A stretch of 21,309 nt of DNA, taken from an uncultured Deinococcales bacterium (GTDB lineage: Bacteria; Deinococcota; Deinococci; Deinococcales; JAAFIG01). The DNA lies in assembly GCA_964247135.1 (NCBI GenBank), contig CAXTTL010000063.1, positions 1 through 21,309 on the forward strand, read 5' to 3'. Below the pieces are notes generated by a model. That model made no database searches and was not told the origin of the DNA. It worked only from the letters and a program-made list of their open reading frames with translations. Both the position numbers and the translations under genes were made by a program. This document shows, in pieces, positions 1 through 21,309 of the stretch (positions are counted from its first letter, which is position 1; every line of letters begins with the position of its first letter).

Positions 1-120
1 TTGCCAAAAGCCAAACTTCAATCGGCGGCACAACAATTGACAAGGCAAGCCACATGCCTCAAACGGCACGTCTGGATGGTGGTAACACCGTTATTGCTCG
101 AGTATGGATAGGAGTTCAAA

Positions 121-522
121 ATGAAAAAACCAACCTTGGTATTGATCGGTTTCGCTTCATTGTTGCTCGTGCTCGGTACGGTCATCGCTGTTGACGCGGC
201 GCCTTCGCCGCGTTGGGCAGCCACATACGAGAACCTCACGATGCCAGAAGGCTTTAAAGCCATGATGGTCTTGGTGGACTTCCCGCCCAATTCTGTGTTT
301 CCGCTGCATTCGCATGGAGGACCGGTGATCGCAATGGTGACCGAAGGTGAGATCACCTTGACTCAAAAAGGTGTCAGCAAAGTTTACAAGGCTGGCGAGA
401 GTTTCAACGAACCCGTCGGTTTAATCCACGAGGCTCGCAATCAGGGCAAGACCAAGGCGGCAGTCATGGTGACCTACTTGTTGCCCAAGGGAGCACAGCC
501 GGACATTTTCGTTGGCAAGTAA
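121..522 (+). CDS. Exported cupin-domain protein
   Basis: AGGAG RBS at 110-114; N-terminal signal-like hydrophobic stretch; cupin motifs PLHSHGGPVIAMVTEGEI and GESFNEPVGLIHEARN. Confidence 0.85.
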   Translation: MKKPTLVLIGFASLLLVLGTVIAVDAAPSPRWAATYENLTMPEGFKAMMVLVDFPPNSVFPLHSHGGPVIAMVTEGEITLTQKGVSKVYKAGESFNEPVGLIHEARNQGKTKAAVMVTYLLPKGAQPDIFVGK

Positions 523-658
523 CGCCCTTGAACGCAGCAAAATTCGATCACCATTCAAAATCGGTGCTCGAGGGTTTGGTTAGGGTTGTGGTGAGGTTCG
601 GGCTGGTTTAAAAGTAGCGCCTCATCGGGTGCTGAAGGCTTGGTGGGTCGCCGCAGTA

Positions 659-699
659 GAGCGAGTTTCAAAGGGCACCGAACCCGATGAAACTCGCTC
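659..699. other. Stem-loop in convergent intergenic region (possible terminator or RNA structure)
   Basis: Perfect 12-bp inverted repeat GAGCGAGTTTCA (659-670) / TGAAACTCGCTC (688-699), extended inside by GGG/CCC. No clear U-tract. Confidence 0.6.
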
Positions 700-820
700 A
701 TGGCTTGGAATGCAACCAGGTTGTATTGGCAATATTTACGTTCTCAGATCGCGTTGACAATCTTACAAAATGCAAAATCGCTACAAACAATAGAATAATT
801 TCTTCACAAATTGGCATAAT

Positions 821-853
821 CGTGAATTATATCACATGCAGCGACCAATGCAA
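821..853 (-). promoter_or_regulatory. Putative leftward sigma70 promoter overlapped by a CRP/FNR-like palindrome
   Basis: Minus strand TTGCAT (848-853), 16 nt, then TATAAT (826-831) with an extended TG. Plus strand CGTGA-N6-TCACA (821-836) is one mismatch from TGTGA-N6-TCACA. Confidence 0.45.
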
Positions 854-874
854 CTTAGACGGTCACAACTAAGT

Positions 875-2212
875 TCACAAAGAATTCAAGCGAGCCTCTA
901 TCGCCCGAGCATGGGCTTCAAGCCCCTCAGCCCTGGCAAGCCTGGCAGCGTCGGATGCAGTCTTCTCGAGGGTGGCACGATTTAACCCAACCACCGAAAT
1001 AATTTTTTGAAAATCCCGCACGTTCACCGGACTCGAGAATCGTGCCGTTCCCATCGTCGGCATGACGTGACTCGGACCCGCCAGGTAATCGCCAAGCGCC
1101 TCCATGCTGTCCTCGCCGACAAAAACCCCACCGGCGTTGCGCACCAAACCCAGCACCTCCCAGGGTTGCTCGAGCAATAAACACAAATGCTCTGGGGCGT
1201 AATGGTTTGCCAGGTCGATGCCCTCAAAAATGCTATCAACCAAACAAATTTTGCCGCGTTCCGCCCAGGAATCCCCCGCCCAGGTGCGGTTGGGTTCGGG
1301 CAGTTTTTGTGTTTGAACTTCAATCTCAAGTAGCACACTCGAGATCAAATCGCTCGAGGTGCTGACCAGTACTGGTTGGGCTTCTGCATGTTCGGCTTGG
1401 GCGAGGAGGTCGGCGGCAACGAATTTTGGATTGGCGCTCTCGTCCGCCAGCACCAGGGTTTCGGTCGGACCAGGCAAGCTGACAATGCCCACCGTGCCGT
1501 ACACGGCTCGCATGGCGAGAACGGTGTACAAATTTCCAGGACCACCAATTTTGTCCACTTTGGGAATGCTCGCCGTGCCATACGCCATCGCCGCGATTGC
1601 CTGCGCTCCGCCCAAGGCAAACACGCGGTGTACGCCGCACTCGAGCGCCGCCGTTAACGTGGTGGCGTCAACATGCCCATCTTTTCCAGGCGGTGAGCAC
1701 AGAATAATTTCGGGAACGCCTGCCACCGCCGCCGGAATGACGGTGTGAATCACGCTCGAGGCGAGTGGATTTGCCCCAGCGGGAGCGTACACGCCCACCC
1801 GGTCTATTGGGCGCACCAGTTGCCCGATTGCGCCCTCGGAGTTGTGCTCGAGAAAACCGTGCGCGGGTTGTTTGAGGTAAAAATCTTTCACGCGCCTGAT
1901 GGCATGACGGATGGCACCCAGCAAATCGGGTGACAGTGAATTTCGGGCGGCAAGCATTTCCTGCCGACTGACCTCAAGAACGCCACTGGCAGGAATGCCG
2001 TCCAATTTGCTCGCATAACGAAAAACCGCCTCATCTCCCTCGAGCCTGACCTGGCGCAAGATTTGCTCAACCACCTGCTCGGGAGTCAATGGTTCGCCGT
2101 ACAAAGCCTCGTTGCGTTGCAGCGTCTCGAGGCTGACCGGGCGTTCACCAAAACCTCGGCTCAACGATTCTCGAGCCTCCGTACCGCGCAAGACCTCGGG
2201 ATGGGATTTCAT
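875..2212 (-). CDS. hisD: Histidinol dehydrogenase
   Basis: Motifs RVGVYAPAG, GGAQAIAAMAYGT, VDKIGGPGNLY, PGPTE, LLAQAEH, APEHL, GDYLAGPSHVMPT. ATGA overlap with the upstream gene stop. Confidence 0.97.
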   Translation of the reverse strand: MKSHPEVLRGTEARESLSRGFGERPVSLETLQRNEALYGEPLTPEQVVEQILRQVRLEGDEAVFRYASKLDGIPASGVLEVSRQEMLAARNSLSPDLLGAIRHAIRRVKDFYLKQPAHGFLEHNSEGAIGQLVRPIDRVGVYAPAGANPLASSVIHTVIPAAVAGVPEIILCSPPGKDGHVDATTLTAALECGVHRVFALGGAQAIAAMAYGTASIPKVDKIGGPGNLYTVLAMRAVYGTVGIVSLPGPTETLVLADESANPKFVAADLLAQAEHAEAQPVLVSTSSDLISSVLLEIEVQTQKLPEPNRTWAGDSWAERGKICLVDSIFEGIDLANHYAPEHLCLLLEQPWEVLGLVRNAGGVFVGEDSMEALGDYLAGPSHVMPTMGTARFSSPVNVRDFQKIISVVGLNRATLEKTASDAARLARAEGLEAHARAIEARLNSL

Positions 2213-3093
2213 TCGTTGCCCTCGGATTTTGCGTTGCGCTTGCGAAAACGCCTGCGTTTTCTGCCCGTTTTGCGCTCGGTGTCTTCGGGTTTGGGCGTTT
2301 CCACTTTGACCTGCTGAGCCACGCGCTGCTCGCGGCTGGGCTGGGCTGCCTTTGATTTGTCAAACCCAGCCTTTTGCTGCGCTCGAGACGGCGCGGGTTG
2401 CCCAGGTCGTGAGCGAATGTTGCCCCGTTGGTCTCGGTTTGAATCCCGGTTTTCACGACGGCTCGGCTGCTGTTGGGGTGTGATGGTACGGGTCAGCACC
2501 GCCTCGAGCGCATATTTGCCCAGCGTTTGCGAGAATTTAAGTGGTCGGCAGGGTTCAGCCGCCTCGATGTAGACCAAATTAACCCCAGGACGCACGTAAT
2601 ACACCCGAGCCAAGACCTCGCCCCAAGGTGAGCTGACGAACTCATCCTCGAGCCGTGTGACCAATGCCATGCCGCCGACCATCGGCACTCGAGCCACCGT
2701 GATGTCATCTGACAGTTCGCGCAGCAATTGCAGCATCGAAACCGGATCGTGGTAATCCTGGGTCAAGGCAATGCTCGCCTCATCACGGTTTTGTTTGACC
2801 GTCAACAAGCCTGCGCGGCGGTCAAAAATCGTTTCAAACGGTCGGTCGCCCGATTCCTGATACGAATTTGGAAAACCGGTGCTCGGCTCGAGCTTCGAGG
2901 TTTGTACGCGTTTTTGCCCGTTGCCGAGTGGACTTTGCAGCACCGTCTCGAGGCGAATGACGAATTGGTTTTTTTCAAAGCCCGAAATCCAACGCTCCGT
3001 ACCCGCCAGACGACCGGCATAATGGAGCGAAAATTGAAACTCTTCGGGCTTGAAAAGTGCATGGGATTCAGAAAAGTGGTTCTGGTCGAACAT
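2209..3093 (-). CDS. Hypothetical protein: beta-rich N-terminal domain (possibly DUF3108-like) and Arg/Gln-rich disordered C-tail
   Basis: 294-aa ORF translationally coupled to hisD; TAGTCT box 6 nt before the ATG. Family assignment is tentative. Confidence 0.7.
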   Translation of the reverse strand: MFDQNHFSESHALFKPEEFQFSLHYAGRLAGTERWISGFEKNQFVIRLETVLQSPLGNGQKRVQTSKLEPSTGFPNSYQESGDRPFETIFDRRAGLLTVKQNRDEASIALTQDYHDPVSMLQLLRELSDDITVARVPMVGGMALVTRLEDEFVSSPWGEVLARVYYVRPGVNLVYIEAAEPCRPLKFSQTLGKYALEAVLTRTITPQQQPSRRENRDSNRDQRGNIRSRPGQPAPSRAQQKAGFDKSKAAQPSREQRVAQQVKVETPKPEDTERKTGRKRRRFRKRNAKSEGNE

Positions 3094-3099
3094 GCCATT

Positions 3100-3105
3100 A
3101 GACTA
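3100..3105 (-). promoter_or_regulatory. -10 box of leaderless promoter (hypothetical-hisD operon)
   Basis: Minus strand TGT-TAGTCT-AATGGC-ATG. Confidence 0.6.
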
Positions 3106-3174
3106 ACACGCTCGATTTTGGCTCGGCATTGATCGATCTGATGCAGGGTTGCAAATGGCAACGCGACACAATGA

Positions 3175-3180
3175 TAGGCT
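3175..3180 (+). promoter_or_regulatory. Extended -10 box of leaderless promoter (alpha/beta hydrolase)
   Basis: TGA-TAGGCT-CGAGGGC-ATG(3188); overlaps CTCGAG at 3179. Confidence 0.6.
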
Positions 3181-3187
3181 CGAGGGC

Positions 3188-3937
3188 ATGAAAATCTTCA
3201 AGCGAATTCTGCTCAACGTTTTGTACGTGTCCTGCGGTGTGTTGATGGGCTTGATCTGGGGTGTCAAACCTCGAGCAACCGTGCTCGGCATTGATCCCGT
3301 GCCGGCAGGCGAAAGCGCTTTGATTCCAGGCGTCGAGGTCAGTCTCGAGCCTGGGAATTTTATTCTTGCCAAACCCGTTTCCCCCAACGGTATCGTTTTC
3401 GTTTATTATCCTGGCGGTCGCGTTCCAGCCCAAAGTTATGAATTTATCGCTCGAGCACTTGCTGCCCAGGGTGTGACCGTTGCCATTCCAGTCATGCCGC
3501 TCGAGTTGGCGGTGATTACGCCCAACCGCGCCTCTGAAGTCCGAACGGCGCTCGAGGCTGGCGGCATGAAAATTGCTAAGTTTATTGTTGGTGGTCACAG
3601 CCTCGGTGGGGCGATGGCGGCAAAATACGCCTTTTCCAATCCCGTCGATGGCTTGGTCTTGATGGGCGCGTACAGCGTCGATGATTTGACTGGGAAATCT
3701 TTTAAAGTCCTCGACATCGCCGCCGAACACGACGGACTGGCAACGCCAGAAAAAGTCAAAGCCGGACTCGAGAAACTGCCTTCAGGCTCGAAGGTCGACG
3801 TGATCTCTGGCGGCGTTCATGCGTTTTTTGGTCGTTATGGACCGCAAGCTGGCGACGGCAGCCCAACGGTGGCTCGAGACGTCTTTGAAAAGGATTTGCT
3901 CGAGAAGTTGAACAATTACTTTCAAACCTTGCAATAA
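3188..3937 (+). CDS. Alpha/beta hydrolase (carboxylesterase-like) with N-terminal membrane anchor
   Basis: YYPGGRV oxyanion region, GGHSLGG nucleophile elbow, AEHDGL (Asp) and GGVHAFFG (His). Start moved from 3149 to ATG 3188 because of the -10 box. Confidence 0.88.
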   Translation: MKIFKRILLNVLYVSCGVLMGLIWGVKPRATVLGIDPVPAGESALIPGVEVSLEPGNFILAKPVSPNGIVFVYYPGGRVPAQSYEFIARALAAQGVTVAIPVMPLELAVITPNRASEVRTALEAGGMKIAKFIVGGHSLGGAMAAKYAFSNPVDGLVLMGAYSVDDLTGKSFKVLDIAAEHDGLATPEKVKAGLEKLPSGSKVDVISGGVHAFFGRYGPQAGDGSPTVARDVFEKDLLEKLNNYFQTLQ

Positions 3938-4182
3938 TTCGGTGATGTGCAACACGGTTCAATTCGGATGATTTGGTTTTGAAACGCCATCACCAGAGTC
4001 TTGGGTCAGACCATCCAATTTCATGCCTCAGATTTTGTGCGGGGATGATTTGCCCCGTGCGATTTGTGCGCTCGAGCCTCCGCAAACAAGCGAACACTCG
4101 AGGTGCCATATTTTTTCAGAGCCTTTTCAGACCCATTTTTCTAAGCTCCGACGACCGAGAGATTCGGGAGAGGAGTAAGAGT

Positions 4183-5616: not shown

Positions 5617-5636
5617 AGCTCGAGATGTTGCAAATG

Positions 5637-5667
5637 GCGTCTGCCGACACTTGCGGTGGACGCTTTT
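5637..5667 (+). terminator. Intrinsic terminator after the vWD lipoprotein gene
   Basis: Stem GCGTCTGCCG / CGGTGGACGC (10 bp with two G-U pairs), 7-nt loop, then TTTT. Confidence 0.6.
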
Positions 5668-5717
5668 GACTCGAGGATTTGAAAACGAACGATGCCGTTG
5701 TGAGAGTTTTACGGCAT

Positions 5718-6710: not shown

Positions 6711-6917
6711 TTCTTAAATGCTACCGCAGCTTTGGCTGACGATTGACTTTGGTTTTGTGCTGATTGCCTCGAGACATCAATTTTAAAATTGTTCGAGCCT
6801 GAAGTCTTGGACATCGTGGTATGTTGCCACAGGGCGAGAGCAACTTGTGCGCTTCACCGTGATCGATTTTTAGGTGTTTCGAGTTTGTCGCCAACATAAA
6901 CTTTTGAAATCTCAACA

Positions 6918-8159
6918 ATGAATATTCTCGTCATCTCACAATTCAATAAGCATTCAAAAAATGGTGGCGGAGAATCAGTTGTCACCTTTCAACAGGTAAA
7001 ATCATTGGTTGAACACGGTCACTCCGTGGCGGTGGTGACTCATGGTGATGCAAATGAAGTTGTATTTGACCAAGGTTTGGGTGTCACGTTCATTTTTGCC
7101 CAAACCCTTGGAGAACCTCCTTTTGGCTACATGCCGCTCTCGAAAAAACAATTTCAATTTCTCGAGACTTCAATTCAAGACTTTAAACCAGAGATCATTC
7201 ATTCGCACACCATGAATTACTTGGCGCTGATGGTGCAAGGTTTTGCACTAAAACACGGTTTTAAATTTTTGTATACAACCCATGAACTGCCAGATAAGTT
7301 GGTTCATTTTTTTCGTTATGGAAAAACGTTACAAAATTTGACATCTATTTTTGTTAACATGCTTGTCAAAGCTTTCTTAGCCAATACCGATAAAGTTTTA
7401 GCGATCAATAAGGCTTCAAAAGAATCAACGCTGCGATTAAACTATCGAGGACAAATTGATATTATCCACAATGGTGTTGAAATTAAAATATTTGATGATC
7501 TTGAAGAGATGTTTCCAAGCGACATCGTAAATTTATATTTTGTGGGTGGAATTAATGATCGAAAAAACCAATGCTTTTTAATTCAAGTAATGCAATACTT
7601 GCCCTCAAATTTTGTTTTACATTTGATTGGCGAATCTGAAAAGATATACAAATTAAAAATTGATAAATTAATTCATGAAAGCAATTTAATCGATAGAATT
7701 AAACTTATGGGCAGTATCGAAAATCAAAAATTGCCACAAATCATTAAAGATTATCATATTTTTGTCAGCGCATCGAAAATGGAAGTTCAGAGTGTGGCTG
7801 TGATTGAAGCCTTGGCGGCGGCAAAACCAATTGTTGCCTTAAAAAACGAAACCATAGAAGATATTGCGGATCATGACTGTGTGACCATGCTGCCACCAGA
7901 AGCCAGCCCAGAAGAATTTGCAAGATCAATTTTGGGAATGCTCGAGGACAAAAATCGGTATTTGACCAACGCCAAAGAAGCTCGAGAAATTTCCAGACTT
8001 TATACCAAAGAAGCAGCCTATAAAATGAATATTCAATCTTATGAAACAACGGAAATCTCGAGCAGCAGAAATCAAAACGCTTATAAGGCAAGTATATTTG
8101 TTTATACTATAGGTGTGGGGTCGCTTTATCGAATCAAAACGTTTTTAAGTCGCTTTTAA
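6918..8159 (+). CDS. Glycosyltransferase family 4 (GT-B), resembling diacylglycerol glycosyltransferases
   Basis: MNILVIS...GG start, KPEIIHSHT, YTTHE, IIHNGVE, FVGGINDRKN, FVSASKMEVQSVAVIEALAAAKPIV (EX7E). Visibly AT-rich. Substrate is inferred. Confidence 0.88.
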   Translation: MNILVISQFNKHSKNGGGESVVTFQQVKSLVEHGHSVAVVTHGDANEVVFDQGLGVTFIFAQTLGEPPFGYMPLSKKQFQFLETSIQDFKPEIIHSHTMNYLALMVQGFALKHGFKFLYTTHELPDKLVHFFRYGKTLQNLTSIFVNMLVKAFLANTDKVLAINKASKESTLRLNYRGQIDIIHNGVEIKIFDDLEEMFPSDIVNLYFVGGINDRKNQCFLIQVMQYLPSNFVLHLIGESEKIYKLKIDKLIHESNLIDRIKLMGSIENQKLPQIIKDYHIFVSASKMEVQSVAVIEALAAAKPIVALKNETIEDIADHDCVTMLPPEASPEEFARSILGMLEDKNRYLTNAKEAREISRLYTKEAAYKMNIQSYETTEISSSRNQNAYKASIFVYTIGVGSLYRIKTFLSRF

Positions 8160-8206
8160 CTTTGCATTTCATACTCTGAATCAATAGATGATCTTAAATT
8201 AAAAAG

Positions 8207-9118: not shown

Positions 9119-9225
9119 CCCAAATCCTCCTGACAGCGAGCGGTAGTCTAGCAGTTGATGATGACGCTGGCGTTAACCACTTTTGCGCCTCAAATCACAA
9201 AACGCCATCATGTTAAACTTTTTGG

Positions 9226-10098: not shown

Positions 10099-10127
10099 AG
10101 ATAATTACGATTTTTTGGTAAGAAATT

Positions 10128-11021
10128 TTATTTGAGCCTTGGATTAATCTTGCCTGTTTGATGATTGATCCCATCTTGAATCCCAACTAAAGTATATTTT
10201 ATTTTTCTTCTTTTATCGCTTTCATAAGCAACAATATGAAAAATTTCTCGAATAAATACCCAGAAATCGGCAAAAAACCAGCTTATGTTGTAAAATCCAT
10301 ACTTGCGATAGTTAATGATACGATTTCGAGCTATAAAATACTTTCGGAATGGACTGTGGACAATTATCGGAATTTGAAAACCCAACAGATTAATTTTGAC
10401 CTCATTTCCCAAACTGTGTTCAATGACCAACGAAGTGTCTTGTATTACTTTCCAACTTTGGGTCTGACAGCGCAAGCAAAATTCAATATCAACACCGTCG
10501 ATAAAGTATTCATCCGCGAAAAAACCAAGATTTTGAAATACTGAGACAGGATATAAACTACCTGAACTGATCCCTTGGCTCACTTCACGAAGTTCCCCAT
10601 CTTTAACGGGTAAATCGATTGATTCGGGATTTCGCCACGATGGCATCAGCACCCCAATCAATCCGAAATGCGATTCTGCCTTTTGAAAAGATGCAATCAT
10701 GTTTTGAACAAATGTAGGTGGAATTCGACTGTCTTGATCAAATGTGAAAACAAATTCGCATCCAGAATCAATCAAGCTTCGCAAGCCAGTATTAAATCCG
10801 GTCGCAATTCCGAGGTTTTCAGAATGCCGAATCAATTTGACCCGAGTGTTTAAAAAGGGCTGAAGCAACAACCCAAACGCTTCACTCGAGCCATTATCCA
10901 CAATGATGAGCAAATCAACCTGAGTTGCAACTCGCTTCAGGTTCTCAATAACGTCTGTGTCAGGTTGAAATGTTACGACCACTGCGCCGATACGGGATGA
11001 AATAACACACGGAGTTGTCAT
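10128..11021 (-). CDS. Glycosyltransferase family 2, rhamnosyltransferase (RfbF/RhlC-like), paralogue of 8207-9118
   Basis: AVVVTFQPD, IVDNGS, NLGIATGFN, TFDQDS, ISSGSL, YFIDGVDIEFC, RKYFIARN. AT-rich. Confidence 0.88.
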   Translation of the reverse strand: MTTPCVISSRIGAVVVTFQPDTDVIENLKRVATQVDLLIIVDNGSSEAFGLLLQPFLNTRVKLIRHSENLGIATGFNTGLRSLIDSGCEFVFTFDQDSRIPPTFVQNMIASFQKAESHFGLIGVLMPSWRNPESIDLPVKDGELREVSQGISSGSLYPVSVFQNLGFFADEYFIDGVDIEFCLRCQTQSWKVIQDTSLVIEHSLGNEVKINLLGFQIPIIVHSPFRKYFIARNRIINYRKYGFYNISWFFADFWVFIREIFHIVAYESDKRRKIKYTLVGIQDGINHQTGKINPRLK

Positions 11022-11218
11022 TCGGCTTCGAGTTTAACAAATTGTGTTGGTTTTGGCTTGCAACTTTAAACTTGAGCGGCATTCAGATCAGTTTTAAAAT
11101 TATCAAGTAACTTCGGTTTGGTTGTTTGGGACATTGAAAACCAAAACCTGAAATCGTTTCATTTCCTTGTTAAGATTGACATCGCGCTCGAGGTCGTCGC
11201 TCGGGGCAAGGAGTATTT

Positions 11219-13477
11219 TTGCACTGGATTTCCCGTCTGAACTCGAGATACCCATATTTGGTGTTGTTGGTCTGGCTTGTCATTTTCGTGATTGCGATTC
11301 CAGTGGCATCCAAAGCAAGCTCGAGGTTTGACGCGTCTGGCGGCGGCGTGCCGAATTCCGAATGGGAACGCGTCACGCGGCTGCTCGGCAGCGAATTTCC
11401 TCGAGCCGACACTGGCGAATCATTTATTCTGGTTTCGGACTCGAGTTTGGGATTTCAAAACCCGCGTTTTTTAGCGCTTTACGCCGCCTTGTTAAAAAGG
11501 TTGAGCGCTTTGAACGGAGTTCTCGAGGCTGTTCGGTTCGACACACCAAATTCTCCAATTCAAGCTTTTGGACAGGTGAAAAATCGTTTTGTCACGGTGA
11601 CCCGCATTTCGGCGCTCTACGGAAATCCGTCTTTGCTCGAGAACATGCGAATTGCGGTGCAAGAGATTGCACCCAAACCAGATACGGTCAAAACGCCCGA
11701 AACCCAGTTTTTAATCACAGGCTCGAGCGCCGTGAACCAAGATTTTGCCAGGTTGACCGAAAGCGACGTGCGGCGCGGCGAACTGACGGCTTTACCGCTC
11801 ACCGCCATCGTGTTGGTCTTTGCTTTTGGCGCTCTGATTGCGGCGGGCTTACCGATAGTGGTCGGCGTTTTCTCGATCACCGTCACCTTGGCTTGCGTGT
11901 ACGTTGTCACGTTCATCATGCCCGTCTCGAGTTTTGCCCAGAGTGTGATCACACTGTTTGGTTTGGGCGCGGGTATCGATTACGCGCTGTTGGTCGTCAA
12001 CCGCTTTCGTGAGGCACTCGAGGGCAATCCCGACCCTCGAGCCGCCGCGTTTGAGGCGACGCGTTCTGCTGGACGCTCCGTGGTGTTTAGCGGCTTGACC
12101 GTGGCGATTGCCATGCTGGGGTTGCTCGTGCCGAACCTGGCACTGGTCCGGTCGATGGGGGTGGCGGGATTACTAACGATTACCGTGACTGTTCTGGTCA
12201 GCATCACGCTGCTTCCAGCGCTACTGGGTTTGCTTGGCGAACGCATCAATTACCCTCGAGCCTTGCAGCGCTTTAGTGAATTGGGGCGCACCGGCGGTTT
12301 CTGGGGTCGTTGGGCGGAACGCGTGATGGCGCACCCGATCATTTGGGGATCGCTTGCCACGGCTTTTCTTTTGCTCTTGGCGGCGCCCGCACTTGGTATG
12401 AAGCTTGGCTACTCGGGCGCCTTTGGTCTTGCGCCAGGCGTCGAATCCCGCAAAGGACTCGAGTTGATTCGACCGCTCGCGTTGGCTGGCAGTTTGGACA
12501 CCTTCGATGTGCTGATCGACCTTGGAAAGCCCAAAGCGTTTAACGCTGAGGCTCGAGCCAAATGGCGGGATTTGGACTCGAGGTTGAATGCTTGGGGCGA
12601 TGTGCAATTGGTCTTGTCCCCATTTTCGACGGTGCGAAATGCGGTGAATTCTGGCTCGAGCAACCCAAGCACAGCCTCAGCGATCAATGCTGCCGGTGCG
12701 TTATCCCAGGCTTTTCTCAGCACAAACCGCCGCTACCTAAAAATGCAAATCGTTCCCAAACAAAACATTCGCACCCAAGATGTCGGCGGTTGGACAGATC
12801 GCATCCGATTGGATGCCAGAAATGCTGGATTCTCGAGCGTCTTGATCGGCGGTGCGCCAAAAAGTTCCTTTGAGATCACCCAAGCGATCACAGGTGCCAT
12901 TCCGATTGCGGTTGGTTTGGTGTTCGCCGCCACGTTTATTGTCTTGGCAGTCGCATTTGGCTCCATTCTGATCCCGCTTAAAAGCATTGTCTTAAACTCG
13001 CTGAGCGTTGCCGCCAGTTACGGCATCATCACCATGATCTTTCAAAATGGTTTTCTCGCCAGTTTTTTCAACGCTCCCAGTGATGTCGGCGCCATCGACG
13101 TCACGCTGCCACTGGTGATGTTCGCCGTGATTTTTGGGCTGTCAATGGATTACGAAATTTTCTTATTGACCCGCATTCAAGAGGGACACCTTGCCGGTTT
13201 AAGCACCCGAGAAGCCGTCAAAATTGCCCTCGAGCGAACGGCGGGTGTCATTACCAGCGCCGCTTTAATCATGGTGATCGTGTTCTCTGGTTTTATTCCT
13301 GGCAGCGTGGTGGTCAACAAAACCATCGGTTTGGGACTCAGTGTTGCCGTGGCGCTCGACGCGACAATTGTGCGCCTGATTCTGGTGCCAGCCTTTATGG
13401 TTTTGGCTGGAAAATGGAATTGGTGGTTGCCAGCCTGGTTACGTCGTGTATTGCCAAAAGTCAAACTCGAGCATTAG
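11219..13477 (+). CDS. MMPL family (RND superfamily) transporter
   Basis: AAGGAG RBS at 11208-11213 before TTG; two membrane repeats with GLGAGIDYALLVVNRFRE and FGLSMDYEIFLLTRIQE; C-terminal DATIVRLILVPA...NWWLP. Confidence 0.93.
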   Translation: MHWISRLNSRYPYLVLLVWLVIFVIAIPVASKASSRFDASGGGVPNSEWERVTRLLGSEFPRADTGESFILVSDSSLGFQNPRFLALYAALLKRLSALNGVLEAVRFDTPNSPIQAFGQVKNRFVTVTRISALYGNPSLLENMRIAVQEIAPKPDTVKTPETQFLITGSSAVNQDFARLTESDVRRGELTALPLTAIVLVFAFGALIAAGLPIVVGVFSITVTLACVYVVTFIMPVSSFAQSVITLFGLGAGIDYALLVVNRFREALEGNPDPRAAAFEATRSAGRSVVFSGLTVAIAMLGLLVPNLALVRSMGVAGLLTITVTVLVSITLLPALLGLLGERINYPRALQRFSELGRTGGFWGRWAERVMAHPIIWGSLATAFLLLLAAPALGMKLGYSGAFGLAPGVESRKGLELIRPLALAGSLDTFDVLIDLGKPKAFNAEARAKWRDLDSRLNAWGDVQLVLSPFSTVRNAVNSGSSNPSTASAINAAGALSQAFLSTNRRYLKMQIVPKQNIRTQDVGGWTDRIRLDARNAGFSSVLIGGAPKSSFEITQAITGAIPIAVGLVFAATFIVLAVAFGSILIPLKSIVLNSLSVAASYGIITMIFQNGFLASFFNAPSDVGAIDVTLPLVMFAVIFGLSMDYEIFLLTRIQEGHLAGLSTREAVKIALERTAGVITSAALIMVIVFSGFIPGSVVVNKTIGLGLSVAVALDATIVRLILVPAFMVLAGKWNWWLPAWLRRVLPKVKLEH

Positions 13478-15204
13478 CCGGCAGAAGATTCCACCAACGC
13501 CCGATACGCGCCCTGAGCCACCATCAAACTCGAGTGTGAACCCTCCTCGATGATTCGACCTTTCTCGAGCACCACGATGCGGTCTGCCTTTTCGATGGTG
13601 CTCAAACGGTGGGCAATGATCAAAACGGTTCTTAAACCGTGCAAATTCTCGAGCGACTCGCGCACCAATGCTTCCGAATGTCCGTCCAGTGCGGCGGTGG
13701 GTTCGTCCAGAATCAGGATGGGCGCACCAGAAACCAGTGCTCGAGCGATTGCCAGTCGTTGCTGCTGCCCACCCGAAAGTCCCGAGCCGCCCTCACCCAA
13801 TACCGTCTCGAGTTTGGCTGGCAGTTGTTCAAGTTCGAGCTTTAAGCCCGATTGTTCAATCGCCTGCCAGAGTTCGGCATCGGTCGCGTTTGGTTTTGCC
13901 AGCCGCAGATTTTCACGAATGCTCATGGCAAAAAGTCCTGGCTGTTGCGGCACGAGCGCGATGGCAGCCCGAGATGCCGCCCGAGTGAAATCTTGCATGT
14001 TCTGTCCGCCCAATTTGATACAGCCCGTTTCAGGCTCGAGCAAGCGCAGCAGCAAACGTGTCAGTGTGGTTTTGCCGCCGCCGCTCGCGCCAACCACGCC
14101 CAGCATTTCACCTGGCTCGAGCCGCAAATTCAGTTGCTCGAGTGCCAGGTTGCTCGAGCCTGGGTAACGCACACTCACGTTCTCGAAGGTCACCGCGCCG
14201 GTCCAACCGGCACTCGGTTTCTCGAGCTTTCCCGTTTCTGGTTCGGGCGTCGTTTGCATGGCGTCGGTGATGCTTCTGGCGGGGTCACGCATGGCGCTCA
14301 AGCGCGAGTACGAATACGCAAAAAGTTGCAGCGGTCCGATCAAAATCACCATCGTCGTCAAATATGTGATCAGCGATGCGCCAGTCATTCGGTTGTTCTG
14401 AATTTCGCCCAAGGCAAACAACACCAGCGTTCCAACGCCCACGCCAACCGTCAATTGCGAAATTGGCGAGTGCATGTTCGACCAAAAACTGCGGCGCAAG
14501 GTGGCTTTGGTCTGCGCGTCATTTTGTATCCCAAAACGATCTTGCATCACTTTCTCGAGCCTGAACGCCTTGATCACCTCAAGCTTCGCCAGACTTTCAC
14601 TCATGGCGCTGGTCGCGCGTTCGGCGGCATTTTGTGTGCCCTCAAAGGCTTTTTGAATTCGTTTGCCGACCAAGGAGTACAAAATCCCGAGCGGCAAAAT
14701 CACCAGCAACAAACCAAAAGTCAAACGCGGGTTTTGCAAAAAAAGCGTTCCAAAAGCAACGATCACCGTCAAACCTTGACCCGTCACGAGCGGCAATTCA
14801 AAGGTCAAAAAGTTCTCGAACTCCCGAATGTCCAAACTGAGCCGCGCCGTCCGACCACCACTCGAGAAACCACCCGCCTCACCAGTTTCGCGCCGCTCGA
14901 GCGCAGAGGCTGCCAGCATCGACTCAAAAACCTTGCCGCGAACCCGCGAGGCGAACGTTGCCCCGCCCAGCGCGAACAGCGTGTTTTGAATGTAAAAGCC
15001 AACGATGCTTAACACCAGCAGCAAAGCGCCCTTGAAGAGCACGCTCGAGATCAGGGCGTATTGCCGTTTTCCGATCACATCGTTAAAAAGAGGTTGCACC
15101 ACAATGGTCGGCAGCAACGGGGTGGCGAACCCGGTGACGAACGAAAAAAACGTGCCAAAAAAAAACAAACGCCATTCGGGGCGAAGGAGAGAGAACAATT
15201 CCAC
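13474..15204 (-). CDS. ABC exporter, fused TMD-NBD half transporter (MsbA-like)
   Basis: N-terminal TM helices; Walker A GASGGGKTT, Q-loop VPQ, signature LSGGQQQR, Walker B ILILDEPT, H-loop IAHRLST. TAAACT box 6 nt before the GTG. Confidence 0.92.
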   Translation of the reverse strand: MELFSLLRPEWRLFFFGTFFSFVTGFATPLLPTIVVQPLFNDVIGKRQYALISSVLFKGALLLVLSIVGFYIQNTLFALGGATFASRVRGKVFESMLAASALERRETGEAGGFSSGGRTARLSLDIREFENFLTFELPLVTGQGLTVIVAFGTLFLQNPRLTFGLLLVILPLGILYSLVGKRIQKAFEGTQNAAERATSAMSESLAKLEVIKAFRLEKVMQDRFGIQNDAQTKATLRRSFWSNMHSPISQLTVGVGVGTLVLFALGEIQNNRMTGASLITYLTTMVILIGPLQLFAYSYSRLSAMRDPARSITDAMQTTPEPETGKLEKPSAGWTGAVTFENVSVRYPGSSNLALEQLNLRLEPGEMLGVVGASGGGKTTLTRLLLRLLEPETGCIKLGGQNMQDFTRAASRAAIALVPQQPGLFAMSIRENLRLAKPNATDAELWQAIEQSGLKLELEQLPAKLETVLGEGGSGLSGGQQQRLAIARALVSGAPILILDEPTAALDGHSEALVRESLENLHGLRTVLIIAHRLSTIEKADRIVVLEKGRIIEEGSHSSLMVAQGAYRALVESSAG

Positions 15205-15269
15205 AGCTCGAGTTTAACAGGTGCGATGGCTTGACAATTGCAAGCTTGAGCTTTGAACTTGAATGGTGG

Positions 15270-16439: not shown

Positions 16440-16463
16440 GCGATCAGTTTAACCCGAGTCGTT

Positions 16464-17699
16464 TTAGCGCAGTTCGCGCAGGTCTTTTTGTGCGTACATC
16501 CAGGCACCGATCAGAACAATTCCAAGACCGGAAATGGCGATGACGATGTTCGCATCAAAACGATCCAGTAAATATCCAATCAAGGCAAAGCCAAGCGGAC
16601 TGAGGCTGTATGAAATCATGTTCATGATGCTAAAAACGCGTCCACGGTATTCGTCGGTCACGGTCAATTGTACCCAAGTCGGCATAAAAACATTGATCAG
16701 TCCTAAAATAATGTTAATTGAAACCATGCCGAAAATAACAATCCAAATTGAACCCGTAAAACCAAATATACCTGTGATGATCAGACCAACGGCAACATAA
16801 CCCAAAGAAACCAGCAATCCTCGGCGCTTGATGGTAATTGCAGAGGCGAGAAAACTGCCCAAAATAACCCCAATGTTAAGGGCAACGACCGTTGAACCAT
16901 ACCAACTGAAATCAATTTTCAGGATTTTGGTAATGTAAAATGGAAGACCAATAATAATTGATGGCACGACCAGATTGAAAAACGCAATCGAGATTAAATA
17001 AATCATTAAGGCATTGTTTTTGCGGGCATAACGCCAGCCTTCGACCATATCGTTCAGCATACTCGAGGATTTTTGACTGGCTTTTGTGCTCGGAATGTTA
17101 GGGCGAATGAACATCAACGCCAGCGTCATGCCAAAAAATGACAAACCATTAAAAAAAATGGCTCCAGCCGTACCTGCGGTCACAACCAGTAAACTTGCCA
17201 GCGCGGGTCCGGCAATCTGGGCAAAATTGCTGCCAATGCTGAACGAAGAATAGGCGTTTTTGAGCTGATTGGTTTGCACGACACTCGGCAGCATGGCATC
17301 GAAGGCGGGGCTTGAGATGGCGTAAAACGAATTGTTGATAAACGCCACAATGTACAGATGCCAGTATTGCACCAAGCCAGCATAAATCAACCAAGCCAGC
17401 ACCAGCATGATCAAACCTCGAGCAAAATTGGACCAAACCACCAGTTTTTGACGGTTTAAACGGTCTGCCAAAGCGCCGCCGGTGAGGCTCATCAGGACGG
17501 TTGGCAAAATTCCAAAAACGGTCATGCCGCCCGCCGCCAAAGCCGAACCCGTCAATTTGATGATCAGGGCAATACGCGCAATATAATAAATCGAATCGCC
17601 CAAACCCGAAAACGTGAAGCCAGCCCACAAAATTGCAAAATCACGGGTTTTGAACAACTCGAGGTTGGCGCGAAATCCTTTGGGGTTTGCGGAAGTCAT
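16464..17699 (-). CDS. MFS transporter (DHA3/macrolide-efflux-like)
   Basis: About 12 hydrophobic segments; motif A GALADRLNRQK; RDFAILW, QIAGPALA, YRGRVFS. Confidence 0.9.
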   Translation of the reverse strand: MTSANPKGFRANLELFKTRDFAILWAGFTFSGLGDSIYYIARIALIIKLTGSALAAGGMTVFGILPTVLMSLTGGALADRLNRQKLVVWSNFARGLIMLVLAWLIYAGLVQYWHLYIVAFINNSFYAISSPAFDAMLPSVVQTNQLKNAYSSFSIGSNFAQIAGPALASLLVVTAGTAGAIFFNGLSFFGMTLALMFIRPNIPSTKASQKSSSMLNDMVEGWRYARKNNALMIYLISIAFFNLVVPSIIIGLPFYITKILKIDFSWYGSTVVALNIGVILGSFLASAITIKRRGLLVSLGYVAVGLIITGIFGFTGSIWIVIFGMVSINIILGLINVFMPTWVQLTVTDEYRGRVFSIMNMISYSLSPLGFALIGYLLDRFDANIVIAISGLGIVLIGAWMYAQKDLRELR

Positions 17700-17769
17700 G
17701 TTGGAAAACTCGAGGGTATAGACTTGTAAATCTTCACGGTAAAAACGATTCTATCGGAATCATGGGCGG

Positions 17770-18540: not shown

Positions 18541-18674
18541 CAAGCCCAGACTACCAACTTTTAAGCTTAAAACCCTGCCATGAGTTGCAATTATGAGAGC
18601 CTCGTTCTGCTTTGCTCCATGACTTTTTTGCCGCACTTCACGCTTCTCACCACGTAAAGCGCGATATTCTGCGT

Positions 18675-19244
18675 GTGGCTCGAGTTTCCCTTATCGCTCT
18701 CGGAATCCTAATTCTTGTAGGCTTGGTGCTCAGTTTCTTGCCAAGTTCCGCCAAAACCCCACTCGGCGAGGTGACGCTCGAGAACGTGGACTTGGTGTTG
18801 TACCCCGCCGCCGACCCGAACGCGAAATGGACTTTTAAAGCAGGCGTTGTCAACTACAATCCCGAATCACGCTCGAGCGTGGCGACGGAACTGAGTGAGG
18901 GCAAGCGGTTGGTGAAAGGAAAACTTGATTTGAGTCTTTACACCAAAACCGTGACCATCGACTCGAATGACAATTTGCAAACCCAGCGTGCCACGATCTT
19001 TATTCCCGATGGATGTTATGTTTTAAAGCTCGGAAAAGACGTTGGACAGCAAGTTCAGATCGATCAGAATTCAGGCTATCGCGCCCCATACATCGATCTC
19101 ACCTCGCCCAACCTCAGTTACACCGCCCAGGATTTCAGCGCATCGTTCGACATGACCCAAACCGATGGTCGCAAATTCAAAACTCGAGCCGTTGACGGCA
19201 ACGGTCAATCATGCGAAACAGTAAAGGCAGGTATTCAACAATGA
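18675..19244 (+). CDS. LptC-like membrane-anchored beta-jellyroll protein
   Basis: Single N-terminal TM helix then a beta-rich periplasmic domain (AKWTFKAGVVNYNPE); first gene of an operon with two LptA-like genes. Start uncertain (GTG 18675 after TATTCT, or 18612). Confidence 0.55.
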   Translation: MARVSLIALGILILVGLVLSFLPSSAKTPLGEVTLENVDLVLYPAADPNAKWTFKAGVVNYNPESRSSVATELSEGKRLVKGKLDLSLYTKTVTIDSNDNLQTQRATIFIPDGCYVLKLGKDVGQQVQIDQNSGYRAPYIDLTSPNLSYTAQDFSASFDMTQTDGRKFKTRAVDGNGQSCETVKAGIQQ

Positions 19245-20122
19245 AACGCAATCTTCTCAGCATTGGTTTACTCGTGATATTCGGTGTCGCTTTGGCGGCG
19301 GCAGGCTCGAGGGTGATCGAAATTGAAGGTGGACGTCAACAGGGTGATCTTCGATTCGGACCTTACAAATACACCGAAGGTGTCAAAGCCACCGTGCAAA
19401 AACTGCAAATCGAATCCACCGAAGGGTCACTGACCGCACCGCAAGGACTCGAGATGAGCAAAGCCCAGGGCAAACGCACCGCAGGCTTCAGTGGCGGCGT
19501 AACGGTGACCAGGGGGCGTTTGACCGCCAAAGGACCGACGCTCGAGTACAAAGAAGAAACGGGCTTGGGTGTGCTGGCAGGTCCAACCAACATTGTGCAA
19601 AAACCAGAAAAAGCGGGCGATGACGATGTTTTAATTACAGCCTTGAAAGCCACATTCGATGTTGACACGAACGTCAGCACCTCTGAAGGCAGCGTAAAAT
19701 TGGTGAACGGCAAGCAATCGGCAACCTCGAGCAAAGTGGTGTTCGATGAAGATAAAAACTTGGGTTGTTTGACCGACTCAAAAACCGTGACCTTGATCCG
19801 TGAGCCTAAAAAAGCGGGCGATGTACGTTTGGTGATGACCGTCAAAGAGGCTCGAGTGAACACCGAGAAAAACACTTTGATTGGATTGGGTGGGGTTACA
19901 TTGGTGGCTGGTAAAAACACCACCACGGGCGATTCGTTGTATTTTGATGACGAAAAAAATACAGCTTATGTTATTGGTAAGCCTGCCAAAAACCTCGATA
20001 AAAAGAGTGGCGGCAGCATCACGGGTACGACACTCGTGAACAATACGGCAAAAGAGCAAGTGCAAGTTGGGAAACCGTTTATCATTCCTCTTGATGCCTT
20101 CAAGTGCCCGAGTGACCGATAA
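19241..20122 (+). CDS. LptA/OstA family periplasmic protein with extended jellyroll
   Basis: Signal peptide MKRNLLSIGLLVIFGVALA; ATGA overlap with the upstream stop; three OstA-like units (GGVTVTRG..LEYKEETG, GSVKLVNG..VVFDEDKN, GGVTLVAG..LYFDDEKN). Confidence 0.8.
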   Translation: MKRNLLSIGLLVIFGVALAAAGSRVIEIEGGRQQGDLRFGPYKYTEGVKATVQKLQIESTEGSLTAPQGLEMSKAQGKRTAGFSGGVTVTRGRLTAKGPTLEYKEETGLGVLAGPTNIVQKPEKAGDDDVLITALKATFDVDTNVSTSEGSVKLVNGKQSATSSKVVFDEDKNLGCLTDSKTVTLIREPKKAGDVRLVMTVKEARVNTEKNTLIGLGGVTLVAGKNTTTGDSLYFDDEKNTAYVIGKPAKNLDKKSGGSITGTTLVNNTAKEQVQVGKPFIIPLDAFKCPSDR

Positions 20123-20963
20123 AGCCAAAAGATTGTTGAGCATCCTGCTGACCGTGCTGGTTGGTGGGGTGCTTTTTGCTCAAACCATTGACCCTGAAAA
20201 ACCTGCCAGCGAATTTCCGCCAACGGAAACATTGGTGCGCAAAGACAAAACGATTATTGCCATCAAATACAGTGCAGACGGTGATGGGCTATTTGTGATT
20301 TGTTCGCCCAAAGATGAAGACAAAGAAAAAATAACAAAATTTGTGATTTACGATCTTAAACCGTATTTGGTTCACATCACGATTGATAAAAACATTATTA
20401 AAGCACCGCTTGCGTTTGTCCGCCAGAAAGATGGTGGTGACGGTGAACTTGAGGCTTACAATGGAAACGCAAATTTGCTCGAGGCAGATGATGCGCCGTG
20501 TTTGCCAGAGATCAAACCTGATCCCAAACCAAACACGGTTTTTGTGACCCAGGGCAAAACCAAGTTAACAGGCTCGAGGCTTGATTACAGCCAGGAGACG
20601 GGTCTGGCAGTCATCGCGGGTCCAATTACGTTTGAGCGCCCGCAAGACAGTGGAGACGTGTTGCGCGGCAACAGCGAGAAGATCACGGTCAACGTGGACG
20701 AGGAAAAAACCTTTCTCGAGGGGAAAGTGATTTTGAAATCCAAATGCCGTGAATCGAGCGCTGACCGTGTGGAGTACGACGACAAGAAAAACCGTGCGAT
20801 TCTCGAGGGGAAACCAGCCAGGTCAACGGGTGCGGACGGTTCGCAAGTGATCGGGGAAAGGCTCGAGTACAACCTCGAGACGAACGATGTGATCGTGACC
20901 TCGAGCGATGAAGGCAGCCCTGTGACGGGGACCTTTGACGATGAGGCTGCACCGTGTAAGTGA
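20112..20963 (+). CDS. Second LptA/OstA family protein
   Basis: GTG 20112 overlapping the previous gene; signal-like N-terminus; OstA-like units VTQGKTKLTGSRLDYSQETG, SADRVEYDDKKNRAILEG, GERLEYNLETN. Confidence 0.75.
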   Translation: MTDKAKRLLSILLTVLVGGVLFAQTIDPEKPASEFPPTETLVRKDKTIIAIKYSADGDGLFVICSPKDEDKEKITKFVIYDLKPYLVHITIDKNIIKAPLAFVRQKDGGDGELEAYNGNANLLEADDAPCLPEIKPDPKPNTVFVTQGKTKLTGSRLDYSQETGLAVIAGPITFERPQDSGDVLRGNSEKITVNVDEEKTFLEGKVILKSKCRESSADRVEYDDKKNRAILEGKPARSTGADGSQVIGERLEYNLETNDVIVTSSDEGSPVTGTFDDEAAPCK

Positions 20964-20986
20964 TTTTGAAAATCTTGAAGGTTGAG

Positions 20987-21018
20987 ACTCGAGGAGCCAT
21001 TCTCGGGTTTTTATTTTT
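20987..21018 (+). terminator. Intrinsic terminator of the lpt-like operon
   Basis: Stem ACTCGAGGA / TTCTCGGGT (9 bp with two G-U pairs), loop GCCA, then TTTTATTTTT. Confidence 0.65.
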
Positions 21019-21066
21019 GGTTCGATGGTAAGTCTTAAACTTTGTCTGGCAATAATTCAAAATCTA

Positions 21067-21096
21067 TTGACAAATACTTGTAAAATAATGTAGATT
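21067..21096 (+). promoter_or_regulatory. Putative sigma70 promoter
   Basis: TTGACA (21067-21072), 18 nt, TAGATT (21091-21096) in an AT-rich intergenic region upstream of an RBS and ATG. Confidence 0.55.
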
Positions 21097-21153
21097 ATTG
21101 TTAGTTAAAATCCAAAATGTGCCAGCAGCTTCAGGTTGCGGAAAGGAACGATC

Positions 21154-21309
21154 ATGAATGCCGAAAGAACCCGCGTGCTCGAGTTGGTCAAAAGTGGAGT
21201 CCTCAGCATCGAACAAGCCGATGAGTTGATCGATGCACTACAAACAGCGAATCAACCAGAGATGCGACCGTCAAAGCACGAAGAATCTCGGATGCCTCAA
21301 CCGCCGCGG
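21154..21309 (+). CDS. Partial gene with N-terminal SHOCT-like (YvlB/LiaX N-terminal type) domain
   Basis: AAAGGA RBS, then MNAERTRVLELVKSGVLSIEQADELIDALQ..., open to the window end. Not in the supplied ORF track. Confidence 0.7.
   Translation, partial: MNAERTRVLELVKSGVLSIEQADELIDALQTANQPEMRPSKHEESRMPQPPR

Follow-up and report, generated by a model that had tools for sequence, protein, structure and literature searches.

The hexamer CTCGAG is almost certainly an iterated palindrome of the type known from cyanobacteria as highly iterated palindrome 1 (HIP1), i.e. a lineage-wide property of the DNA that is held far above its mutational equilibrium by a present-day directional force on the whole word. 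We studied it in a stretch of 21,309 bases from an uncultured Deinococcales bacterium (the window in what follows), which constitutes contig C63 of an assembly (G000) comprising 386 contigs and 5,091,702 bases, with a completeness of 84% and a contamination of 1.8%. A preliminary description of the window, made without database searches, had pointed out the abundance of the word and its likeness to HIP1, and as a pattern this likeness was confirmed with respect to over-representation, frame independence and conservation.

Abundance of CTCGAG in the window and in the genome

The window was found to hold exactly 142 copies, the figure that had been estimated before, corresponding to one per 150 bp, with the first at positions 97-102 and the last at 21178-21183. 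Dinucleotide-preserving shuffles of the window yielded a mean of 3.39 copies (standard deviation 2.02, maximum 11), and none out of 100 reached 142. The spacing is irregular and, as previously described, the copies occur both in genes and in intergenic DNA: 128 lie within the 18 main open reading frames (ORFs) and 14 in the remaining 1,962 bases (7.1 per kb). Distributed over the three frames, the ORF copies number 74, 22 and 32, the 74 being those read as CTC-GAG and thus as Leu-Glu. The octamer GCTCGAGC, of which about two dozen copies had been reported together with a weak flank preference, accounts for 24 of the 142, and G at -1 or C at +1 was found at 130 of the 284 half-sites (46%).

The enrichment is not confined to this contig, a possibility that the preliminary description had left to be settled. 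A total of 33,925 copies was found in G000, again one per 150 bp (~6.7 per kb). Across all contigs of 5 kb or longer the density ranges between 2.6 and 10.5 per kb, and the signature recurs in 18 further genomes of the family. No other of the 4,096 hexamers is as frequent in G000 as CTCGAG, which stands at 24.7 times the zero-order expectation from base composition and, in the Markov comparison that had been suggested as a check, at ~35 times the first-order expectation. While 62% of all TCGA tetramers in the genome lie within CTCGAG, every other NTCGAN reaches at most 1.8 times its expectation. The flank preference is weak genome-wide also, with G at -1 in 38.6% of cases, and since GCTCGAGC (4,225 copies) does not exceed the ~5,050 predicted from two independent flanks, the unit is the hexamer.

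Nearest-neighbor spacing in G000 is close to random (coefficient of variation 0.96), apart from a deficit below 20 bp. A neighbor distance of 6 was never seen, because it would create GAGCTC. No periodicity other than the codon period of 3 was detected at distances up to 600 bp in this 386-contig assembly, and low-frequency peaks were rejected as harmonics of the fitting range. In a public read run, 6% of the sampled words were present; against window positions 1-10000 it gave 22 short pieces, mostly less than 95% alike.

Codon usage and effects on proteins

As a null model, synonymous codons were shuffled within each of 1,991 non-overlapping ORFs of at least 300 codons (2.94 Mb), a procedure that keeps the protein, all dipeptides and the codon usage of the gene. 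The preliminary description had named such a shuffle as the critical check, and the enrichment persisted: 2,533 copies were expected and 18,950 observed (7.5-fold). Divided by frame, the expected and observed numbers were 1,973 and 11,550 in the Leu-Glu frame (5.9-fold), and 179 and 2,864 (16-fold) and 381 and 4,536 (12-fold) in the other two. Non-ORF DNA, defined as bases under no open stretch of 70 codons in any frame and making up only 78 kb of the genome, contains 500 copies in 78,144 bases (G+C content, GC, 0.42), i.e. 6.4 per kb or 39 times the expectation from its composition, compared to 6.66 per kb in ORF-covered DNA. The excess over the shuffle together with the equal density in non-ORF DNA shows that the signature is a property of the DNA and not of the proteins.

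The proteins nevertheless bear its mark, since the word takes precedence over codon preferences and accounts for thousands of additional Leu-Glu pairs. With 14,878 occurrences and an observed-to-expected ratio (O/E) of 2.34, Leu-Glu is the most over-represented dipeptide in G000, whereas Glu-Leu stands at 1.02 and Leu-Glu in control taxa at 0.73-0.96. CTCGAG encodes 11,550 of the 14,878 (77.6%). Outside such pairs Leu is written CTC in 15.3% and Glu GAG in 33% of cases, from which 5.05% CTCGAG would be expected, and the odds ratio is consequently 65 (ln 4.2). Altogether, the 1,991 proteins contain ~8,500 additional Leu-Glu dipeptides. Ser-Ser, one reading of the third frame, has an O/E of 1.61.

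Conservation between relatives

The comparison with G005, a genome of the same genus, covered 354 kb and 227 orthologue pairs with 79,137 aligned codons, an amino acid identity of 88.4% and a four-fold-site identity of 0.69. Out of 1,582 copies in G000, 1,219 were kept in G005. Where the amino acids are conserved, hexamer identity amounts to 0.91, 0.79 and 0.91 in frames 0, 1 and 2, respectively, as opposed to 0.55-0.57 for other hexamers. The codons behave accordingly: CTC is retained at 0.913 before GAG and 0.53 elsewhere, and GAG at 0.943 after CTC and 0.69-0.78 elsewhere. Among 1,109 conserved Leu-Glu pairs, CTCGAG is found in both genomes in 821, in G000 only in 80, in G005 only in 65 and in neither in 143. 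In a two-state stationary fit, the loss per unit of G000-G005 divergence amounts to 0.105 and the gain to 0.436, the neutral synonymous loss in control contexts being ~0.9-1.1. Under this model, CTCGAG would be lost about ten times more slowly than matched synonymous changes, and its gain, averaged over non-word encodings, would be about 2-4 times faster than estimated neutral change. The scaled fixation bias S is then estimated at ~3.5-4 per site, ~3.5 resulting from the loss ratio by the standard fixation-probability formula and 4.2 from the equilibrium odds (ln 65). Slowed loss and accelerated gain are expected under selection and conversion-like drive alike. The earlier proposal that an active process creates or keeps the sites is thereby supported, both by the roughly tenfold slower loss and by the 78-81% of Leu-Glu pairs that are encoded by CTCGAG where 5% would be expected. 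Conservation also extends to the window itself, whose alignable sites were kept in 97 of 126, 81 of 114 and 60 of 83 cases in three relatives with 81-84% nucleotide identity, while ~33% (0.83^6) would be expected for a random hexamer.

Counts of one-mismatch variants had been proposed as a guide to the mutational direction. All nine neighbor classes were rare in relation to the word, each at 0.003-0.064 of the CTCGAG level per mutational route, but depletion below background did not appear: the only class below 0.5-fold of its expectation from composition is CTAGAG, with the avoided CTAG in it. A slight enrichment is even seen for the three transition neighbors (1.17-1.74, with CTTGAG/CTCAAG at 1.17), which decay of CTCGAG would be expected to supply, and 130 of the 172 single differences at lost sites are transitions. 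Undepleted neighbors and a bias at all six positions together suggest that the bias acts on the complete hexamer.

A more distant comparison, between genera of the family, comprised 32 orthologue pairs and 10,161 codons with 67% amino acid identity, the four-fold identity outside the words (0.425) being set against 0.337 by chance. Here, CTCGAG was found in both genomes at 45 of 80 conserved Leu-Glu pairs, where 43.9 would be expected under independence (odds ratio 1.5, p = 0.55). This independence, at a divergence near saturation, suggests a global pressure and not particular functional sites, with suitable positions being equally likely to be filled whichever the lineage. Within the genus, sites with their nearest neighbor at 150-500 bp were retained at 0.86 (202/235) and those with a neighbor closer than 150 bp at 0.755 (994/1,316; Fisher p = 0.0004). 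The imported-looking, AT-rich MvaI/BcnI restriction-modification (R-M) pair on contig C189 of G000 has 0 and 1 copies of the word.

Distribution in the order

The nearest named relatives of the hisD gene in the window are metagenome-assembled genomes (MAGs) labeled 'Deinococcales bacterium' (89% and 68% amino acid identity), in agreement with the earlier guess of Deinococcota. The corresponding 21-kb loci of these two hold 142 and 139 copies of CTCGAG, and a 73%-GC Deinococcaceae locus none. A wider survey, made by counting the octamer GCTCGAGC in 201 genomes of the order, showed the trait to be graded, extreme in the family of the window and missing from some relatives. All 19 genomes of that family (f1) are rich, with 838-4,448 octamers. 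In family f2, 17 out of 53 genomes are strongly skewed and the others are not. Family f3, with 6-199 copies per genome, has no enriched member among its 53. Family f5 is divided, since its genus g9 is depleted (2-56 copies) and genera g13, g22 and g24 have 737-3,270. A backwards-word control pattern contains GAGCTC, which is absent from f1, and so overstates the contrast there; expectations based on composition were used instead.

Densities of CTCGAG itself were obtained from samples of 12-60 kb per genome, which are small for G128, G152 and G027. The closed, single-contig genome G011 of f1 has 4.2 copies per kb (O/E 12.8). In f5, G128 (g22) has 3.2 (O/E 9.5) and G152 (g13) 3.1 (O/E 9.8). The f2 genomes range from 2.6 in G168 (O/E 9.4) over 1.9 in G147, likewise a closed genome (O/E 5.8), and 1.6 in G019 (O/E 5.4) to 1.1 in G027 (O/E 4.9), and no copy was found in 40 kb of G020 from f3 (O/E 0). 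A separate observation concerns G022 of genus g9 (68% GC). In positions 1-40000 of its contig C1, all 41 TCGA tetramers lie within CTCGAG, bare TCGA being avoided and the hexamer standing at 3 times its expectation. This genome encodes a 63% homologue of a methylase that is linked to XhoI elsewhere in the order.

Search for a cognate enzyme

According to the preliminary description, the window contains no candidate enzyme gene, and a methyltransferase combined with biased mismatch repair might account for the sites. The former agrees with the domain content of the window genes, among which no DNA methylase or restriction nuclease was found, but the latter received no backing from the relatives. 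The XhoI nuclease family (PF04555) was identified in 0 of the 19 genomes of the family and in 3 of the 41 genomes in the sample of the order, and in these three, methylase genes adjoin the XhoI-family genes. For the 583-residue gamma-class methylase beside the broken XhoI gene of G031, the best match in the window's family has at most 27% identity, and the 340-residue beta-class methylase beside the XhoI gene of G021 gave only generic C-terminal matches there. C5 methylases were absent from the word-rich genomes G019 and G027, and beta-class N6/N4 methylases from the closed genome G011. D12-class matches are patchy among word-rich genomes, with one group paired with a SacI-like nuclease; MT-A70 methylases occur in one out of five genomes, and the gamma-class matches are Type I subunits or large fusion proteins. 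Thus, no single methylase family is common to the CTCGAG-rich genomes examined. The repair nuclease Vsr was found in none of five genomes, with a positive E. coli control. Altogether, searches with the Pfam families C5, beta N6/N4, D12, gamma (N6_Mtase, Eco57I) and MT-A70 and with the two XhoI-linked methylases, applied to genomes most of which are incomplete, did not retrieve a CTCGAG-specific methylase; the specificity of a methylase is, moreover, not readable from its sequence.

G000 is well supplied with R-M genes, namely an NgoPII-type nuclease with a C5 methylase, an Eco29kI-type nuclease with a C5 methylase, the AT-rich MvaI/BcnI-type pair, a NotI-like nuclease with a methylase, a Type I system, an orphan M.PvuII relative and a D12-class methylase beside a SacI-family match. 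None of these points to CTCGAG. Several candidates were considered and rejected. The orphan beta-class methylase beside alaS on contig C36 is a close M.PvuII relative (E 1.5e-149 to PDB 1boo) with close homologues in only 4 of 41 genomes. D12-class 'group A' (~285 residues) is missing from G000 and in G005 fills the slot of the NgoPII-type pair of G000, while 'group B', on contig C320 of G000, lies beside a SacI-family match in both G000 and G005 and is read as a system for GAGCTC and not CTCGAG. Eco57I-family matches of ~500 residues are seen in many genomes, and twelve of them, when compared, had 22-68% identity, mostly ~25-30%, outside one same-genus pair with 91%. In a tblastn comparison, all but those of G009 and G027 (10/12) matched the HsdM of the Type I system on contig C169 of G000. 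Finally, the beta-class homologue (63% identity) of an XhoI-linked methylase in G027 lies in a word-poor 2.5-kb stretch (1.2 per kb) that looks recently imported, and has no counterpart in the window's family. A weak N6-methylase region and a Snf2-like helicase region (with weak matches to DISARM DrmD and MADS) are found together in a further protein of 1,499 residues, encoded on the minus strand at positions 1668-6167 of contig C112 of G000. This contig has 3.55 copies of CTCGAG per kb, half the usual density, and is probably a defense island.

Avoidance of other palindromes

Most other palindromes have been purged from the same genome. GAGCTC does not occur at all in the 5.09 Mb of G000, where ~1,370 copies would be expected, and only 1 GGGCCC, 3 CGGCCG, 4 AGGCCT, 5 CGTACG, 7 GGATCC, 11 CCGCGG and 15 CAGCTG were found. 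Of the 64 palindromic hexamers, 28 fall below 10% of their expectation. Among tetramers, GGCC is reduced to 380 copies (0.02-fold) and CTAG to 0.07-fold, and the window contains neither GGCC nor GAGCTC.

Some of the R-M genes correspond to purged words. A D12-class methylase lies beside a SacI-family ORF (27.9 and 30 bits, above the cut-off) at positions 1304-2961 on the minus strand of contig C320 in G000 and at 75478-77147 of contig C63 in G005; the pair is likely a GAGCTC system, which would explain the total absence of this word. Among the other purged words, GGCC is matched by the NgoPII-type genes, CCGCGG by those of Eco29kI type and CAGCTG by the PvuII-like one. One chromosomal slot is occupied by the NgoPII-type pair in G000 (contig C14, 36040-37936) and by a D12-class methylase in G005 (contig C6, 78412-79125), and looks like a site where restriction systems are swapped between species.

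What maintains the word

Our tentative reading, in which we place rather less than even confidence, is that a drive or weak selection, connected in either case with DNA exchange, keeps CTCGAG in place. An uptake or recombination signal had been one option of the preliminary description and a DNA-binding protein another, and both are still candidates. Some step of natural transformation or recombination, e.g. binding, uptake, protection or strand invasion, would favor fragments that contain the word, and alleles with CTCGAG would then replace alleles without it, as has been proposed for DNA uptake sequences and recently for HIP1. The purge of nearly every other six-base palindrome by restriction pressure would fit a lineage that exchanges much DNA across many barriers. 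We prefer this reading because such a process would spread by itself and would do so without a methylase, because it would act on the complete word wherever this lies, and because it agrees with a lineage under heavy restriction pressure.

Several points weigh against it. The competence channel ComEC is encoded in G000, but since 10 of 14 control genomes have it too, this carries little weight. The near-random spacing gives no sign of selection for one site per fragment, and isolated sites are only slightly better retained. Furthermore, the arithmetic of fixation bias cannot tell drive from selection for some other function of CTCGAG, and the estimate of S assumes a two-state equilibrium while the copies private to one genome in the aligned genes are unequal, 360 in G000 and 256 in G005 (p = 3e-5), which means that the density is still moving between species of one genus. 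The independence between genera rests on 80 sites only, and the test has low power. A reader protein, an uptake bias and an effect on recombination are all hypothetical for this word. Thermus is not known to prefer particular sequences in DNA uptake, and the uptake sequences known are longer (9-12 bases), non-palindromic and present at ~1 per kb.

Among other explanations, weak selection for a chromosomal function, with each CTCGAG serving as a site for an abundant DNA-binding protein in nucleoid organization, protection, replication or repair, is unlikely in our judgment, if worth serious attention. Conservation above controls in all frames is the type of evidence that Xu et al. read as selection (PMC5861425), an S of ~4 requires only a minute benefit per site in a large population, and both the neighbor deficit below 20 bp and the slightly better retention of isolated sites are in keeping with it. 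Yet no period but that of the codons is seen up to 600 bp, different genera do not share the positions of the word beyond chance in the 80-site comparison, it is hard to see how a further copy could still be of benefit at one site per 150 bp, and no candidate protein was identified. A bias in methylation-linked or sequence-specific repair, in which a mark or the sequence is read and mismatches are corrected towards CTCGAG without any selection, seems less probable again. CTCGAG is a methylase target of XhoI, PaeR7I and BsuMI, methylase genes adjoin XhoI-family nuclease genes elsewhere in the order, and the G000 assembly is only 84% complete, the methylase searches having covered known families. 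The model stems from Elhai's work on HIP1, and it was proposed for HIP1 and its alternates, which usually co-occur with a cognate methylase (PMC4390886). What speaks against such a bias here is the lack, in the family, of XhoI-type nucleases (0/19) and of close homologues of the XhoI-linked methylases, the lack of a shared methylase family in the word-rich genomes examined and of Vsr (0/5), and the fact that one mismatch type or position cannot yield a 25-fold rise with CTTGAG/CTCAAG undepleted at 1.17 and the bias present at all six positions.

Two trivial origins can be weighed more briefly. That CTCGAG experiences no force of its own and simply results from preferences for codons, amino acids or dipeptides, or from other palindromes being avoided, is highly improbable: genic copies do often lie in the Leu-Glu frame (74/128 in the window, 11,550/18,950 in the genome), and CTC and GAG are ordinary preferred codons in GC-rich relatives, but the codon-preserving shuffle leaves a 7.5-fold excess (12- to 16-fold in the two other frames), the density outside ORFs is equal, CTC and GAG drop to 15% of Leu and 33% of Glu codons outside the word, and control taxa have no excess of Leu-Glu. 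An artefact of assembly, binning or library construction, such as an adapter or linker with an XhoI site, could be suspected since G000 is a fragmented MAG. However, in-frame copies sit at orthologous positions of conserved genes in independent assemblies, and the 18 other genomes of the family with the signature include one that is a single closed contig, so the chance of this is close to negligible.

The exchange reading can be extended into a bolder proposal, which as a whole we consider somewhat doubtful. CTCGAG would mark DNA as 'self' during exchange, would have an origin separate from that of HIP1 and would function without a dedicated methyltransferase. A competence or recombination protein of these Deinococcales would read the bare hexamer and prefer donor DNA with it, molecular drive would thereby have raised the word to one per 150 bp and reshaped the proteome, and circulating restriction systems would have purged the other palindromes. 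If true, the enrichment of the word and the purge of palindromes would be two faces of one high-exchange lifestyle.

Genes and other features of the window

The gene content of the window is ordinary, with hisD, glycosyltransferases, an MMPL transporter, an ABC exporter, AnmK, TatD and LptA-like proteins. Core genes have 8-12 copies of CTCGAG per kb and low-GC genes 1-3 (Table 1), and the density of the word flags imported DNA. A cluster of sugar transferases at 6918-11021 (GT4, two GT2 and one unassigned ORF; GC 0.36-0.48), mostly with few copies, is probably an imported surface-polysaccharide cassette.

Table 1. Features of the window and their content of CTCGAG.
Feature	Position	Strand	CTCGAG copies and remarks
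Dispersed CTCGAG copies	97..21183	.	142, exact matches
Non-ORF CTCGAG copies	567..572 (example)		starts at 97, 567, 3767, 3873, 3899, 5619, 5670, 6768, 10085, 11187, 15207, 17709, 20988, 21178
cupin gene	121..522	+	0
hisD (histidinol dehydrogenase), core gene	875..2212	-	11 (8.2 per kb); used for lineage placement
glycosyltransferase gene, GC 0.36	6918..8159	+	4 (3.2 per kb)
family-2 glycosyltransferase gene, GC 0.39	10128..11021	-	1 (1.1 per kb)
MMPL transporter and ABC exporter genes	11219..15204	.	18 and 14 (~8 per kb), typical core density
MFS transporter gene, GC 0.46	16464..17699	-	3 (2.4 per kb)

Three other observations were made in the window. In a protein of 547 residues encoded at 3973-5616 on the plus strand, a von Willebrand factor type D domain (E 5.5e-7) is accompanied by a weak C-terminal match to repulsive guidance molecule, both of which are mainly animal domains. 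Two adjacent, slightly overlapping ORFs of 303 and 298 residues at 19211-20963, also on the plus strand, each carry an LptA/LptD-N (OstA-like) domain and are thereby evidence for an outer membrane with lipopolysaccharide transport in this Deinococcales lineage. Lastly, 51 ORFs of at least 100 residues are found where there are ~18 real genes, many of them long shadow ORFs. Long open frames occur in all six frames because CTCGAG holds no stop codon in any of them, and gene callers may over-predict in DNA rich in the word.

Comparison with known systems

The same six letters are recognized by the XhoI/PaeR7I R-M systems, but restriction sites are normally avoided and CTCGAG is enriched, in a family in whose 19 genomes no XhoI-family nuclease was found. 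XhoI or TaqI would cut the DNA of G000 into pieces of ~150 bp unless it is modified. Very-short-patch repair by Vsr in connection with Dcm shifts the frequencies of CCWGG and CTAG in E. coli without selection on the word. Its effects are modest, however, with the T-containing neighbor depleted, while CTCGAG has a 25-fold excess, undepleted transition neighbors and no Vsr gene found.

The DNA uptake sequences (DUS) of Neisseria and uptake signal sequences (USS) of Pasteurellaceae are short words kept by exchange bias, found in coding DNA at an amino acid cost and scarce in foreign DNA, and their accumulation by molecular drive alone has been modelled. CTCGAG shares with them its abundance in resident DNA and its scarcity in recently imported DNA. 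DUS and USS differ in having 9-12 letters, in being asymmetric, in occurring at ~1 per kb, and in that a receptor has been identified or inferred and an uptake bias measured, while CTCGAG is a six-base palindrome at ~6.7 per kb to which the flanks add little.

HIP1 is the closest parallel. It has puzzled researchers for three decades, and work on it has been limited to a single phylum. Cyanobacterial HIP genomes, like G000, also avoid many other palindromes. HIP1 (GCGATCGC) is described as a short GC-rich palindrome, 15- to 300-fold over-represented in all frames and in intergenic DNA, whose function is debated, and whose sites are conserved between related genomes above control words and scarce in imported DNA (PMC5861425, PMC4390886). 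Its density is given as 0.3-2.7 per kb (PMC4390886), and genomes with an O/E below 16 are classed as HIP1-poor by Xu et al. in 2018, who read the conservation as selection and against 'neutral replenishment' (PMC5861425). Elhai lists some HIP1-rich strains without a recognizable methylase (PMC4390886). Methylated HIP1 sites are reported in a preprint to improve transformation by up to more than 100-fold (10.1101/2024.09.10.611283), and in 2026 HIP1 was proposed as a phylum-wide uptake sequence (PMC13756078). The alternate cyanobacterial HIPs (GGCGCC, GCsGC, rCCGGy and TCGATCGA), as presented by Elhai in 2015, show that the iterated word varies by lineage and can have five to six letters; all are cyanobacterial and each has its own specific methylase (PMC4390886), whereas none was found for CTCGAG. 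No publication on CTCGAG as an iterated or over-represented word in Deinococcota was found, in a search that left out most subscription journals.

CTCGAG resembles HIP1 in being over-represented, frame-independent, conserved and scarce in imported DNA, and it shows three of the features by which the HIP class is recognized: an excess of at least ~15-fold, presence in all frames and in non-coding DNA beyond codon usage, and conservation above controls. A quasi-periodic arrangement over tens of kilobases is a further mark of the class, while the distances analyzed for CTCGAG reach 600 bp. HIP1 usually occurs together with GATC and CGATCG methylases, while a cognate orphan methylase was not found in the CTCGAG family. 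Near-complete genomes of the order with ~10-fold enrichment may represent cultivable strains, in which case the HIP problem would become experimentally tractable outside cyanobacteria. The footprint of the word is measurable, as a scaled bias of ~4, as ~8,500 Leu-Glu dipeptides above expectation and as a distribution that is graded across 201 genomes. Furthermore, HIP1 is cyanobacterial, has eight letters and reaches 0.3-2.7 copies per kb, whereas CTCGAG has six letters, belongs to Deinococcales, occurs at ~6.7 per kb and is set apart by its strong effect on the proteome (Leu-Glu O/E 2.34). It thereby constitutes an independent and denser case in a second phylum, one that allows general explanations of iterated palindromes to be told from cyanobacterial particulars.

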